Shown here piece after piece: positions 48,452-59,425 of a stretch of DNA of 64,000 bases. Positions within the stretch are counted from its first letter, which is position 1. Each line of letters opens with the position of its first letter. This DNA comes from an uncultured Faecalibacterium sp. (GTDB lineage: Bacteria; Bacillota; Clostridia; Oscillospirales; Ruminococcaceae): contig CAKSTO010000001.1 of NCBI GenBank assembly GCA_934501115.1, positions 2,022 to 66,021 on the forward strand, read 5' to 3'. A program made the translations under genes and the position numbers. The notes under the pieces were generated by a model. The model saw only the letters and a program-made list of their open reading frames with translations, was not told the DNA's origin and did not search any database.

Positions 48452-48706
48452 ATGAACTTTAACCGTTTCGATTTTTCAAACGGGAACGAGATCGTGGGCT
48501 CCATGTTTGCAAAGTGTGAGATGCAGCTGACAAATTTCAAGGGCACCGAGCTGCACGAAACGGAATTCTACCAGTGCGATTTGCGGAAAGCGGACTTCCG
48601 GGATGCTGCAGGCTACAAGGTGGATATTCTGGGCAGCACGGCAGCCAGACGTGAATCGGGTCTTTTCTTTTGTGGCAGGGGAGTGTATACTGGAAGCAGC
48701 TTTTGA
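48452..48706 (+). CDS. Short pentapeptide-repeat protein (possibly a truncated fragment)
   Basis: Repeats of the A(D/N)LxG type are visible (TNFKGTELHETEFYQCDLRKADFRDAAGYKVD). It is only 84 aa. Confidence 0.4.
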   Translation: MNFNRFDFSNGNEIVGSMFAKCEMQLTNFKGTELHETEFYQCDLRKADFRDAAGYKVDILGSTAARRESGLFFCGRGVYTGSSF

Positions 48707-48747
48707 GCGTTTCTTCTCAGAATAAGAAGTGTAAAGGAGATACAGCT

Positions 48748-49629
48748 ATGCAGGCAACCATTCAAAACGATTTTTTGACCCTCACGGTGGATACTCACGG
48801 TGCCGAAGCCGTCAGCCTGAAAAATGCAGCGGGCGAAGAGCTGCTTTGGCAGGCCGACCCGGCTGTGTGGAAGCGCCACGCACCCATTCTATTCCCGTGG
48901 ACGGGCAAGCTGCCCGGCGGAACCTTTGAGGTGGATGGAAAAACGTACAAGGGAGGTCAGCACGGCTTTGCTCGTGATTTGGAGCACACTTTGCTCAAGG
49001 CGGAAGGGGATACCATCCAGCTGGAGCTGCGCTCGGATGATGCCATCAAGGCTGAGCGCTTCCCCTTTGATTTTGTGCTCACCAGCACTTTCCGGCTGGA
49101 CGGAAAGACTGTGCACCACACCCTGCAGGTGACGAATCCGGGCAGCGGGGAGCTGCGGTTCGGCATCGGCTATCACCCTGCGTTCAACATTCCCTTCGAC
49201 GATCAGCACACCACCAAAGATTACGAGTTCCGCTTTGACCGGCCGGAGAGCCCGGTCATCCTCGACGCCTGCCCCAACGGCCTGCTGAGCGGCAAGTGCT
49301 ATTATCAGTGGAAAAACCAGCAGGCGATCCCGCTGACCGATGACCTGTTTGCCAACGACAGCTTCTGCATGGCAGGCCTGCGCACCAGAATCATCAGCAT
49401 CTGTGAAAAGGACACCGGCCGCAGGATCACCTGCAATGTGGAAGGCTACCCCTATTCGCTCATCTGGTCGGCTCCCGCAAAGCCGGTGCGGTTTGTGTGC
49501 ATCGAGCCGTGGCACAGCCTGCCTGCCGCTGAGACCGATCCGCAGGCGTGGAGCCAGCGTGCAGCCGCCGCCTGCCTTGCCCCGGGTGAAAGCTGGGAAA
49601 CCACACTGAGCACCACGTTTGAACGATAA
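48748..49629 (+). CDS. Aldose 1-epimerase (mutarotase) family protein
   Basis: It has an HGFAR-like motif (GGQHGFARD) and a galactose-mutarotase-like beta-sandwich of length ~293 aa. Confidence 0.8.
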   Translation: MQATIQNDFLTLTVDTHGAEAVSLKNAAGEELLWQADPAVWKRHAPILFPWTGKLPGGTFEVDGKTYKGGQHGFARDLEHTLLKAEGDTIQLELRSDDAIKAERFPFDFVLTSTFRLDGKTVHHTLQVTNPGSGELRFGIGYHPAFNIPFDDQHTTKDYEFRFDRPESPVILDACPNGLLSGKCYYQWKNQQAIPLTDDLFANDSFCMAGLRTRIISICEKDTGRRITCNVEGYPYSLIWSAPAKPVRFVCIEPWHSLPAAETDPQAWSQRAAAACLAPGESWETTLSTTFER

Positions 49630-49659
49630 AAAAGCACGCAGAAACGAAGCTGCGTGCAC

Positions 49660-49789
49660 TTGACAGAACCTTTGAAAATGAGTATACTGTAAACAGAAAA
49701 GGCACTGCGACAAGCGGTCAGCCTTTTTGATGAACAGTCTTAGAAACTAAGAACCGTCACCGGCCAGGGTGGCGGTTCTCGCTTTTTAC
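49660..49789 (+). ncRNA. Candidate small antisense RNA: near-consensus promoter (TTGACA-17-TATACT) driving a ~95-nt non-coding transcript that ends at an intrinsic terminator
   Basis: TTGACA is at 49660-49665 and TATACT at 49683-49688. No ORF longer than 6 codons follows. An 11-bp hairpin gaaccgtcacc/ggtggcggttc plus tcgcttttt lies at 49751-49789. The transcript is fully complementary to the 3' end and 3' UTR of the minus-strand small ORF. Confidence 0.4.
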
Positions 49790-49840
49790 CTTGATAGTAA
49801 ATACCAATCCGAAGATATGGAATGTCAAAGTAATTGGCAT
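49757..49840 (-). CDS. Candidate type I toxin-like small hydrophobic peptide (27 aa)
   Basis: An ideal RBS AAAGGAGGTG lies 7 nt upstream of the ATG. The peptide is MPITLTFHIFGLVFTIKVKSENRHPGR. A possible promoter TTGTAA-17-TATCAT lies upstream at 49921-49949 on the minus strand. The 3' end of the ORF is overlapped by the convergent plus-strand sRNA. Confidence 0.35.
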   Translation of the reverse strand: MPITLTFHIFGLVFTIKVKSENRHPGR

Positions 49841-49950
49841 GAGCTTCACCTCCTTTCGGAAGTGGGGCCGAACCGCCTGCCGTTGTATGCAGTGCCTTGC
49901 CGCCTGAAAGCGACAAATTCATGATAACACAAAAATTGTCAAATTACAAG

Positions 49951-49983
49951 AAAAAACGGAGCACCGAAGTGTTCCGTTTTTTG
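49951..49983. terminator. Bidirectional intrinsic terminator downstream of proS
   Basis: It reads aaaaaacggagcaccgaagtgttccgttttttg: a hairpin flanked by an A-run and a T-run. Confidence 0.6.
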
Positions 49984-50007
49984 TTATATTGTCAGTAAAA
50001 GGAAAGC

Positions 50008-51447
50008 TTAGTACGCCACGCCCCAGTAGACCATGGTCTTGGCGGGCTTGCCGCAGCAGGGGCACACATCGCTCAGGTGTTCCTGCTCAAAGGGCATGCA
50101 GCGGCTGGACAGGCCGACTTCTTCCTTCATCTTCATTTCGCAGGCAAGGTCGCCGCACCACATGGTCTTGATGTAGCCGGTGTTTGCCTTGGCCAGTTCC
50201 TTCACCTCATCCATGGTGGTAGCTGCCCAGGTGCGCTTCTCACGGTTGGCGAGGGCACGCTCGTACAGATCCTTGCGCAGAGCTTCCAGCTGGGCGGGGA
50301 TGGCGGTCTCCAGCTCGTCCAGAGAGACAAAGACCTTTTCGCGGGTGTCGCGGCGCACCAGCACGCACTGGTTCTTTTCCAGATCCTTGGGGCCGATCTC
50401 CAGACGCAGAGGCACGCCCTTCATCTCCCACTGAGAGAACTTCCAGCCCGGGGCATTGTCGCTGTCATCCAGCTTCACGCGGGCATACTTGCTGATCTTC
50501 TCAGCCAGCTCGGCAGCCTTCTCGCTGACGCCGGGCTTGTGGGCGGCGATGGGCACCACAACGACCTGAATGGGAGCCACTGCCGGGGGCAGGATCAGGC
50601 CGTCGTCGTCGCCGTGGGTCATGATGATGGCACCCACCAGACGGGTGGAAACGCCCCAGCTGGTCTGGAACGGATGATGCAGCTGGTTATCACGGCCGGT
50701 AAAGGTGACGTCGTAGGCCTTGCTGAACTTATCGCCAAAGTAGTGGCTGGTGCCGCTCTGCAGAGCCTTGCCGTCCTTCATCATGGCCTCGATGGTGTAG
50801 GTGGCCTCAGCACCGGCAAACTTTTCTTTGTCGGTCTTGCGGCCCTTCACCACGGGGATGGCCAGATCCTGCTCGCAGACGTCTGCGTAGCAGTTCAGCT
50901 GCTGCTGGGTCTCAGCCTCCGCCTCGGCGGCAGTCTCGTGGATGGTGTGGCCTTCCTGCCACCAGAACTCGCGGCTGCGCAGGAAGGGACGGGTGGTCTT
51001 TTCCCAGCGCACCACGCTGCACCACTGGTTGTACTTCATGGGAAGCTCGCGGTAGCTGTGCAGCACGCGGGACCAGTGGTCGCAGAACATGGTCTCGCTG
51101 GTGGGACGCACGGCCAGACGCTCTTCCAGCTTGTCGGAACCGCCCATCGTGACCCACGCCACCTCCGGCGCGAAGCCATTGACCAGTTCGCCTTCCTTCT
51201 GCAGCAGGCTTTCCGGGATCAGCACGGGCATTGCCACGTTCTCATGGCCGGTGGCCTTGAAGCGGGCATCCATGTCCTTCTGGATCAGCTCCCAGATGGC
51301 CTGACCATAGGGGCGCAGGATGATGAAACCCTTCACACTGGAATACTCCACCAGCTCTGCCTTGACGCAGATGTCGGTGTACCACTGTGCAAAGTTTTCC
51401 TCCTGACTGGTGATCGCCTGTACGAGCTTCTTTGAATCTTTTGCCAT
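50008..51447 (-). CDS. proS: Proline--tRNA ligase (archaeal/eukaryote-like type)
   Basis: It has class II aaRS motifs and a C-terminal zinc-binding domain typical of ProRS type 3 ([23 protein letters not shown]). It has a GGGAGG RBS. Confidence 0.9.
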
Positions 51448-59168: not shown

Positions 59169-59425
59169 GGGTCTCCCTCCTTATGCCCCTATTATAGAGT
59201 ATCCCCCGGGTGGAAGGTCAAGCGTTTTTTGCTGGAACGTTGCGCAGAAAACGAAATAAAGAACAAAATAAATGAAAAGCAGTGCAAGATGTAGTTTGCG
59301 GATACGGCCCTTTGCGTGAAAATGCAACAACGGGCAGCCCGCAGGCTGCCCGTTGTTGCGATAATAAAAGATAAAATTTCCTCTGAATGTGCCCAGAGCG
59401 AACGCGGCGGGCATTCAAATCGTTT

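Follow-up and report, generated by a model that had tools for sequence, protein, structure and literature searches.

Does the unannotated spacer between two convergent genes of an uncultured Faecalibacterium hold a type I toxin–antitoxin (TA) module, that is, a small toxin gene together with an antisense RNA gene that pairs with its mRNA? The stretch of DNA analysed here, called the window throughout, comprises 64,000 nucleotides (nt) of contig CAKSTO010000001.1 (assembly GCA_934501115.1), and the spacer lies between an aldose-epimerase-family gene (48670-49629, plus strand) and proS, which encodes a class II prolyl-tRNA synthetase (ProRS; 50008-51447, minus strand). A first-pass annotation had proposed that a strong plus-strand promoter in this spacer drives an antisense small RNA (sRNA) convergent with a short open reading frame (ORF), and had likened the arrangement to txpA/RatA, bsrG/SR4 and fst/RNAII. 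Type I TA loci are nearly invisible to annotation pipelines, and most of those known come from Proteobacteria, Bacilli and Clostridioides difficile (PMC12390103; PMC6563280). Sequence comparison indicates that the region from about 49628 to 49950 is an autonomous cassette of two convergent, overlapping genes and that the cassette is a new family of type I TA-like kind. It probably works like the 3'-overlap type I TA modules of Gram-positive bacteria.

The anatomy of the cassette, as set out in Table 1 and the following paragraphs, is held with high confidence. The promoter, 27-codon ORF, strong ribosome-binding site (RBS) and hairpin described in the first-pass annotation all lie where it had placed them, and every element of the cassette was found again in about 240 related copies. 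Across a 1.6-kb region, 2 promoter-like and 9 terminator-like sites were counted, compared with 0.4 and 1.7 expected from shuffled sequence. The predicted sRNA and mRNA folds have z-scores of -5.05 and -5.87, respectively, and none of 200 shuffles folded as well. The cassette also stands out in composition, with a GC content of 45.5% against 57% for the window. Inverted repeats (49699-49708 and 49889-49898) lie on either side of the ORF, and a scan for tRNA and transfer-messenger RNA genes found none.

An important first step is to establish that the ORF is under selection as a coding sequence, a property that can be read from the pattern of substitutions among relatives. The ORF is preceded by the Shine–Dalgarno (SD) sequence GGAGG at 49853-49849 of the minus strand, 8 nt ahead of the ATG. 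For the coding test, 63 unique relatives with 25-codon ORFs were compared, leaving out the codons that overlap the hairpin used in the search patterns. Pairwise differences at codon positions 1, 2 and 3 number 3120, 2032 and 13554, and synonymous differences outnumber nonsynonymous ones by 11377 to 3886 in frame, compared with 1901:13431 and 510:14741 in the two other frames. In addition, an SD-preceded ORF with the same TGA end is kept in 56 of the 60 copies found by a pattern built on the 3' half of the cassette, which placed no constraint on the ORF. By these measures, the ORF is a genuine coding sequence under purifying selection at the amino-acid level, and the claim that the small ORF is real is upheld by a third-position bias and a synonymous excess confined to this frame. 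The family comprises 126 distinct peptides of 20-31 residues that share the core (M-R/P)-I-T-L-(T-F)-H-I-G-x-F/Y-T-V-T-I-x-V-K followed by a basic tail, with one Thr and the His invariant. Some variants terminate ahead of the hairpin to give 20-residue peptides (e.g., L234, from F. prausnitzii ATCC 27768), and the N-R-H-x-x-K/R tail is therefore not essential. Its conservation can be largely explained by the RNA hairpin that overlaps it.

On the plus strand, the proposed near-consensus promoter with a terminator about 95 nt further on was recovered, with the promoter score and RNA length given in Table 1. When the antisense promoter was scored against TTGACA-N16-18-TATAAT in the 228 copies that have full context, 181 (79%) matched at 12 of 12 positions, 37 at 11, 7 at 10 and 3 at 9; the median predicted sRNA length across the family is 100 nt. 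The promoter of the peptide gene is weaker across the same copies (6-12 of 12 matches, usually with an extended -10). A strong antisense promoter facing a weaker sense promoter is the arrangement that would be expected when an antitoxin RNA is needed in excess. The central hairpin, which has 12 pairs of which 7 are G-C and is followed by CGCTTTTT, reaches 98.1% pairing when read on the sRNA strand, compared with 88.8% on the peptide strand. The single mismatch that is invariant on the peptide strand, a C·A, involves the A of the TGA stop codon and becomes a G·U pair on the sRNA strand, and compensatory changes are seen at 3-4 pairs. Since pairing is favoured on the sRNA strand, the hairpin appears to work as the sRNA terminator, in agreement with the first-pass view of the shared hairpin. 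The 3' end of the sRNA (~49788) overlaps ORF codons ~18-27 as well as the 3' untranslated region (UTR), likewise in all aligned relatives, and the proposed overlap with the last ten or so codons thus holds. The 3' ~95 nt of the mRNA, among them the 3' arm of a long-distance helix described below, are fully complementary to the sRNA, whose 5' stem-loop is close to a copy of the 5' arm of that helix without its G·U pairs and bulge.

A covariance model built from the relatives scores 88.8 bits at the window locus. The next matches, at 26.7 and 26.5 bits, fall on an unrelated terminator hairpin at 59271-59418; the 26.7-bit match covers a strong, GC-rich bidirectional hairpin at 59325-59360 (GCAACAACGGGCAGCC-CGCA-GGCUGCCCGUUGUUGC) between NfeD-like and glycoside hydrolase genes, which has no relation to the cassette. 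Within the window's sRNA, UUUUU directly follows the 5' stem-loop (49701-49728, plus strand), a U-run not conserved in the wider family. In the window's subtype, this stem-loop with its U-run could terminate transcription early and yield an RNA of ~35 nt.

The conservation of the sRNA half raises the question of which of the two RNAs is the main product. The sRNA could be a phage-borne trans-acting regulator in its own right, with the peptide mRNA as a secondary cis target or sponge: its promoter is the best-conserved element of the cassette, its 5' stem-loop is the most conserved block, and sRNA-only copies exist. However, the amino-acid-level selection on the ORF is clear, the ORF with its SD is kept in 162 of 176 sRNA signatures, and the conserved 5' block of the sRNA is explained by its covarying partner in the mRNA 5'UTR. 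We therefore regard a primary trans-acting role as improbable.

The peptide mRNA has a structure of its own. Its promoter, TTGTAA-17-TATCAT with a TG extension (49949-49921, minus strand), had been given no coordinates in the first-pass annotation, and in alignments anchored on the 5' half both promoters appear as conserved hexamers with unconserved spacers. In the window's minus-strand fold, the 5'UTR pairs with sequence ~180 nt downstream and the SD is buried in a hairpin; both features were absent from the earlier description. Support for four helices was assessed with RNAalifold on 68 sequences and with pair counts on 150. In the pair counts, 93.2% of cells are paired compared with 36-50% for slid partners, 308 cells are changed on both sides compared with 65 ± 7 in shuffles, and 19 pairs show such changes. 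None of 500 shuffles reaches the observed value for cells paired, cells changed on both sides, further pair types or covariation score, and 1 of 500 does so for the number of pairs with both-side change. The long-distance helix consists of 8 + 11 + 4 pairs (23 bp) with a 6-8-nt bulge. Every one of its 8 outer and 4 inner pairs shows compensatory changes (e.g., G-C in 106 sequences and A-U in 34), at positions that lie outside the search patterns, and the block containing its 3' arm is the most conserved in the unbiased alignment derived from BLAST.

Both helices show a strand preference. In helix H2, the inner 15 pairs of the long-distance helix, pairing reaches 96.0% on the peptide strand compared with 79.7% on its complement, and G·U cells (384) outnumber C·A cells (17). 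For the SD hairpin, the corresponding values are 92.4% and 84.4%, and its pair 69-86 is C-G in 100 sequences and U-A in 26. These counts indicate that selection on both structures acts through the peptide mRNA. The predicted probability that the SD is unpaired is 0.03-0.05 in 160 family members in every state modelled; in these models, the SD is shown to be constitutively masked and the long-distance helix to close the mRNA.

The helix also bears on where the mRNA ends. Because it covaries with G·U pairs of the peptide strand, the peptide transcript must span both arms, and because the conserved 5'-3' helix needs both, the minus-strand RNA should reach at least 49699. The mRNA would measure ~220 nt if it ended near 49695 and ~280 nt if it ended at the 49634-49657 terminator, which is probably the case. 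A comparable hairpin and U-tract, ending ~46 nt past the antisense -10, is found in 85 of 178 unique copies, and the window's hairpin belongs to the cassette allele and is absent in empty alleles. The mRNA length of ~170 nt given in the first-pass annotation is accordingly too short. Alternatively, the ORF could be a leader peptide whose stop-codon hairpin acts as a transcription attenuator for downstream minus-strand genes. On the peptide strand, the stop codon does lie in a hairpin that is followed by a U-rich tail (223 of 228 copies have 4-8 T in 10 nt, mostly 6), and co-oriented genes follow 40-90 nt downstream in some phage copies. However, the next downstream gene is convergent both in the window, where it is the 3' end of the epimerase-family gene, and in Vescimonas; in roughly half of the copies, another terminator follows the cassette; selection on the hairpin favours the opposite strand; and the conserved antisense promoter would stay unexplained. 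An attenuator is thus very improbable.

Table 1 Features of the cassette and its border in the window
Feature	Position	Strand	Remarks
sRNA promoter, TTGACA-17-TATACT	49660..49688	+	11/12 consensus matches
Predicted antisense sRNA, ~94 nt	49695..49788	+	5' stem-loop, variable middle, terminator; ends inferred
sRNA 5' stem-loop, GGCACUGC-GACAA-GCGGUCAGCC	49701-49723	+	Overlies 3' helix arm of the mRNA
Central hairpin and U-tract, putative sRNA intrinsic terminator	49750..49788 (hairpin 49750-49779)	+	Peptide stop codon in its arm
27-codon ORF, MPITLTFHIFGLVFTIKVKSENRHPGR, with stop TGA	49757..49840	-	ATG at 49840; TGA 49759-49757 inside hairpin arm
Predicted peptide mRNA	49630..49914	-	Promoter, both helix arms, terminator; ends inferred
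-35 hexamer of peptide-mRNA promoter, TTGTAA	49944..49949	-	TTG at least 90% conserved in 71 related sequences; neighbouring bases vary
Extended -10 of peptide-mRNA promoter, TGtTATCAT	49921..49929	-	TA...T at least 90% conserved; start inferred near 49914
5'-terminal stem-loop of peptide mRNA, GUCGCUUUCAGGCGGC	49899..49914	-	Minimum-free-energy fold; optional equivalent in a subset of relatives
5' arm of long-distance 5'UTR-3'UTR helix	49866..49898	-	Inverted repeat and fold
Anti-SD/SD hairpin, CCACUUCC-GAAA-GGAGGUG	49847..49865	-	Fold, with RNAalifold and pair counts
3' arm of long-distance helix in peptide mRNA	49699..49725	-	Same bases on the plus strand form the sRNA 5' stem-loop
Probable mRNA terminator, hairpin GCACGCAG-N8-CUGCGUGC and U6	49628..49657 (hairpin 49657-49634)	-	Just past the antisense -35
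Bidirectional hairpin ending proS	49951..49982	both	Flanks the cassette; unlike the terminator of cassette-less genomes

Homologs of the cassette were gathered by BLASTN and by DNA patterns. BLASTN returned 70-80% identical copies in three fecal contigs recorded as 'Bacteriophage sp.' and at five places on the 861-kb Vescimonas fastidiosa replicon pMM35_01. The 3'-half pattern was found in 47 IMG/VR contigs and the 5'-half pattern in 106, with 3 false matches among 73 unique sequences examined, and the combined pattern accounts for at least 120 loci in 106 species-representative genomes. Among the matches listed, the hosts are overwhelmingly Oscillospiraceae and Ruminococcaceae, and 17 of the 106 assemblies have 2-3 copies, with tandem pairs at several loci. 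Named hosts are Faecalibacterium (including F. prausnitzii ATCC 27768), Gemmiger, Subdoligranulum, Oscillibacter, Evtepia, Dysosmobacter, Vescimonas and Yanshouia, and the cassette is also present on the complete chromosome of Anaerotruncus colihominis DSM 17241. Conservation of the peptide and promoter in relatives, and the existence of paralogous copies, had been suggested as checks on the TA proposal. Both elements are conserved, the antisense promoter matching at 10 or more of 12 positions in 225 of 228 copies, and the cassette is multicopy and tandem in relatives, with no paralog found elsewhere in the window by BLASTN and TBLASTN. At loci L142, L159, L186, L213, L218, L222 and L224, two complete cassettes lie 200-400 nt apart, and tandem cassettes often encode different peptide subtypes (25-aa and 27-aa in L218 and L222). 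Some cassette contigs are filed under unrelated taxa, namely Barnesiella intestinihominis (L198), Escherichia coli (L230), Bacteroidaceae (L135, L140 and L149) and Collinsella (L179). Because L198 matches the Faecalibacterium window, with 88% identity over 3.7 kb, at least some of these labels are better seen as binning errors in 'cleanbin' metagenome-assembled genomes (MAGs) than as host range.

The cassette is accessory, being present or absent among genomes with identical ProRS and located at varied sites. Ten loci (L001-L010) have a ProRS identical to that of the window: the spacer (49630-50007 in the window) is 378 nt long and contains the cassette in 7 of them, is 186 nt long in 2 and is 115 nt long in 1. 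Assemblies GCA_042854225.1 and GCA_040234585.1 are examples that have the 378-nt allele. The whole spacer, including its terminator hairpins, differs among the three alleles. Four MAGs ~87% identical to the window have the cassette at the same site, three from uncultured Faecalibacterium and the probably mis-binned L198, and in another Faecalibacterium and two Gemmiger genomes it stands beside different genes. A second variable spot lies ~1 kb from the cassette: in two of the same-species loci (L004 6018-7440; L006 5826-7440), the place of the two-component system beside the epimerase-family gene is taken by a 201-aa ORF together with a large serine recombinase that has Resolvase, Recombinase and Zn_ribbon_recom domains.

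Such mobility could also be that of a non-coding inverted-repeat element, similar to a miniature inverted-repeat transposable element (MITE), or the signals could have arisen by chance in an AT-rich spacer. The inverted repeats around the ORF and the varied insertion sites fit the former. However, no target-site duplication is visible among the three alleles, in which the entire spacer is exchanged; conservation reaches past the repeats to both promoters; the strand-specific G·U pairs of H2 and the compensatory changes indicate selection at the level of RNA; and variation falls mostly at third codon positions. The inverted-repeat and chance explanation is the least credible of those considered here, and the MITE, chance and attenuator readings are all rejected on strand-specific G·U pairing, covariation, codon-position bias and gene orientation.

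In viral contigs, the cassette is found beside endolysin amidase, holin-like, tail sheath and tube, integrase and ribbon-helix-helix (RHH)-like genes, and no neighbour is constant among 217 unique contexts. As its neighbours vary to this extent, the cassette behaves as a self-contained 'moron'. The cassette also decays in a characteristic direction. Orphan sRNAs with promoter, 5' stem-loop and terminator are found at L014 3262-3316 (Vescimonas pMM35_01), L140, L142 and L155; these copies start exactly at the terminator and sometimes lie directly beside a complete cassette. On the toxin side, lesions include a nonsense codon at position 2 (L212), an SD deletion (L190) and a 5' truncation (L013), and only 1 of 228 copies (L188) has the peptide gene without its sRNA half. 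A harmful product fits this pattern, because sRNA-only orphans and toxin-side lesions exist and the peptide gene is found without the sRNA in that single copy.

Searches for known families and records place the cassette outside the annotated universe. No gene is called at the locus in ten assemblies and no family matches it, which bears out the statement that it is unannotated. In Rfam, there was no match at the gathering score across the whole window, and none of relevance at E values up to 10 for the locus. The short hairpin-containing sRNA model STnc320 scores 33 bits against a gathering score of 50 over the proS terminator hairpin at 49951-49982; being below threshold, it was set aside as a generic terminator-like hairpin. 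Three peptide variants found no match above noise in Pfam or NCBIfam, including no Fst-family match, and peptide variants found none in PHROG, PADLOC or the PDB. The exact 27-aa peptide is recorded without a name in two JGI contigs, two relatives are also on record and likewise unnamed, and an exact look-up of the 30-aa GTG-start version found no record. The 90%-identity cluster of the 27-aa peptide (P0001) also holds an unrelated 903-aa NCBI protein (P0003), which looks like a clustering artefact. The peptide strings were not found in the literature searched, nor in the supplements searched of the Sberro et al. preprint and the MetaRibo-Seq paper, and literature searches on type I TA and Faecalibacterium and on the sRNA returned nothing relevant. 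Since there is no sequence, profile or covariance-model match, the cassette falls outside every named family (TxpA/RatA, BsrG/SR4, BsrE/SR5, YonT/SR6, Fst/RNAII, Hok/Sok and others).

How well does the cassette agree with what is expected of a type I TA system? Toxin mRNAs of this type are described by SD/anti-SD pairing, a 5'-3' long-distance interaction and, in Gram-positives, a 3'-side antisense RNA that overlaps the ORF (PMC8594479). The layout matches that of type I TA because the descriptors in PMC8594479 and PMC6563280 are found in it. The coding gene, usually below 60 aa in such systems, has 20-31 codons here; an antisense RNA gene able to pair with the mRNA is indicated by its promoter, terminator and complementarity; an mRNA made inert by SD/anti-SD pairing and/or a 5'-3' interaction (PMC8594479) is what the models predict; and the 3'-overlap architecture of the Gram-positive group in T1TAdb is present. 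The class is further marked by a protein that is toxic in excess and neutralised by its RNA, for which the decay pattern of the copies gives indirect population-genetic support, and by an unstable antitoxin RNA opposite a stable toxin mRNA with nuclease-dependent decay, to which the promoter asymmetry is the one related observation. Of the original TA proposal, the layout, the overlapping convergent units and the lack of annotation thus stand. There is no sequence homology to txpA, bsrG or fst, and the hydrophobic helix is doubtful, as discussed below.

A mechanism can be proposed from these elements. Transcription of the minus strand would give an mRNA of ~220-280 nt for a 27-residue cationic peptide, translationally inert since its GGAGG would be held in the anti-SD hairpin and its 5'UTR and 3'UTR in the 23-bp helix. 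The abundant sRNA of ~95 nt would form a duplex of ~95 bp with the mRNA 3' region, displacing the weaker, G·U-containing 5' arm and marking the mRNA for cleavage by an RNase III-type, double-strand-specific nuclease. The peptide would be made only upon loss of the sRNA or upon mRNA processing that opens the SD, and it could then harm or arrest the cell and so stabilise a prophage or genomic site. In this scheme we infer the transcript ends, the involvement of a nuclease, and the toxicity and target of the peptide.

Several findings weigh against the type I TA reading and should be considered together. First, invariance in parts of the helices is imposed by the search patterns, and the evidence from covariation comes solely from positions outside them. 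Second, blocking the sRNA-bound region in silico left SD accessibility unchanged, and the sRNA does not cover the SD. Occlusion of the SD by the sRNA was modelled and set aside, as it had no effect on SD exposure. Because this exposure is unchanged in the model, repression is more likely to occur by decay than by occlusion, and translation probably needs processing or refolding. Duplex-dependent mRNA decay of RNase III type operates in both RatA/txpA and SR4/bsrG. Third, the peptide is atypical. The usual type I toxin has a hydrophobic transmembrane domain and a charged C terminus (PMC6563280), and the first-pass annotation had described the window's peptide in similar terms, as a hydrophobic helix with a charged tail. 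The charged tail is present, with a net charge of +3 to +7 in the family. There is reason to doubt the hydrophobic helix: in all 125 family peptides, the Kyte-Doolittle mean over 19 residues stays below the classical transmembrane threshold of 1.6; the near-invariant central Gly is followed in the commonest variants by Arg, Pro, Lys or Gln; and the hydrophobic moment at beta periodicity is 2-3 times that at helical periodicity in 95-100% of members. The longest uncharged stretch is 7-18 residues, and hydrophobic residues alternate with Thr or His along the peptides. Such a periodicity points to an amphipathic beta-hairpin that carries a cationic tail. In contrast, AlphaFold2, given the single sequence of the 30-residue GTG-start version of the window's peptide, predicts a helix at residues 4-26 with a predicted local distance difference test (pLDDT) score of 79, which is weak evidence for so short a peptide. 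Type I toxins that act outside the membrane include SymE and RalR, and a hydrophobic make-up is thus usual and not obligatory.

The fourth point concerns placement. At L019, L034, L039 and L041, an endolysin gene (Amidase_2 or Amidase_3) follows the cassette in the same orientation after 45-85 nt, and at L023 and L060 a holin-like gene comes downstream of the cassette. This placement may indicate a link to the lysis module, and it also fits a lysis-related or non-TA role. It is here that the main rival explanation arises, in which the anatomy is the same and the peptide is no toxin, being instead a phage 'moron' product (a mini-holin or antiholin for lysis timing, a superinfection exclusion factor or a small regulator) dosed by a cis-antisense RNA as lambda OOP acts on cII. 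Many copies lie in phage contigs, an amidase gene is found directly downstream in the same orientation in 8 unique contexts and a holin-like gene in 4, and the family peptide is without a classical transmembrane segment. Moreover, hok-like loci that take part in phage release are known (PMC8621323). However, the absence of a constant neighbour speaks against a fixed role in lysis; the window's cassette, like other chromosomal copies, is flanked by housekeeping genes and has no phage genes close by; and the SD hairpin, long-distance helix, consensus antisense promoter, orphan sRNAs and toxin-side decay would be expected of a harmful product. The positions upstream of endolysins in some phages keep this explanation alive, and we consider it unlikely on balance.

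A more specific form of the proposal can also be put forward, tentatively, as one possibility among several. The cassette may encode a type I effector of a new kind, namely an amphipathic beta-hairpin of ~17 residues (core I-T-L-H-I-G-x-F-T-V-T-I-x-V-K, in which Thr and His are invariant) with a short Arg/Lys tail in place of a transmembrane helix, which would attack the membrane as an oligomer or at the surface, or act on a soluble target. Gated by the antisense RNA, it would give phages of gut Oscillospiraceae a switch that governs prophage maintenance, lysis timing or exclusion. Both the periodicity data and the placement beside lysis genes fit this possibility.

If the type I TA reading is true, the cassette would be the first such family for Faecalibacterium and the Oscillospiraceae, dominant human gut commensals that are hard to manipulate, and for their phages. 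Hundreds of natural variants already set out the rules of its promoter, RBS masking and long-distance pairing. The cassette is a strain-variable marker in Faecalibacterium and is likely to be a module that stabilises prophages or takes part in phage interactions. It could also provide a compact, RNA-controlled kill switch or counter-selection part for organisms short of genetic tools, and it offers a test case for whether very short, beta-patterned peptides can act as type I toxins.

Several known systems resemble the cassette in part. The Bacillus subtilis systems txpA/RatA, bsrG/SR4 and yonT/SR6 are likewise Gram-positive, prophage-associated and built of convergent genes. In B. subtilis, the toxin mRNA is overlapped at its 3' end, and over the last part of its ORF, by an antisense RNA of ~100-200 nt (PMC8594479); SR6, for instance, is a 100-nt RNA overlapping the yonT 3' end (PMC5848175). 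The window's family differs in that it has no sequence similarity to these systems, encodes a shorter peptide (20-31 aa) without a classical transmembrane segment, and adds the 23-bp helix between the 5' and 3' regions. Within the Clostridia, the C. difficile pairs CD2517.1/RCd8 and CD0956.2/RCd10 and their relatives also overlap convergently, are found in many cases in prophages, had previously gone unannotated and encode toxins with a charged C terminus (PMC6563280; PMC7699646). The review of C. difficile type I systems does not mention Oscillospiraceae or Faecalibacterium (PMC6563280). However, the C. difficile toxins are 30-56 aa long with a hydrophobic N-terminal transmembrane region and a Lys-rich tail, and they have no similarity to the window's peptide.

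Two further systems share single features with the cassette. The OOP RNA of phage lambda is a short antisense RNA transcribed from a strong promoter of its own to its own terminator; its sequence complements the 3' end of the cII mRNA, and it acts through RNase III cleavage. It differs in that cII is a 97-aa regulator and in that the pair is part of the phage core circuit, not a free-standing cassette with many sites. In the par system of Enterococcus faecalis (fst/RNAII), the convergent RNAs share a hairpin terminator between the genes. This shared terminator is also seen in the cassette; in par, however, the interaction involves 5' direct repeats outside the overlap and the antisense RNA does not overlap the ORF (PMC8594479), whereas in the cassette the overlap itself is the complementary region.

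The closest parallels to the closed mRNA are hok/sok of plasmid R1 and aapA1/IsoA1 of Helicobacter pylori, which share SD sequestration, a 5'-3' interaction and an activation expected to need processing. Their primary toxin mRNA is inert through SD sequestration and a 5'-3' interaction (PMC8594479; Franch et al. 1997 as cited there). They differ in being Gram-negative, in having the antisense RNA lie within 5' sequences of the mRNA or across the start of the ORF and not at the 3' end, in encoding transmembrane-helix toxins and in having no homology to the cassette. As judged from its predicted RNAs, the cassette overlaps at the 3' end in the manner of txpA/RatA, bsrG/SR4 and yonT/SR6 and also has a long-distance lock like that of hok or aapA.

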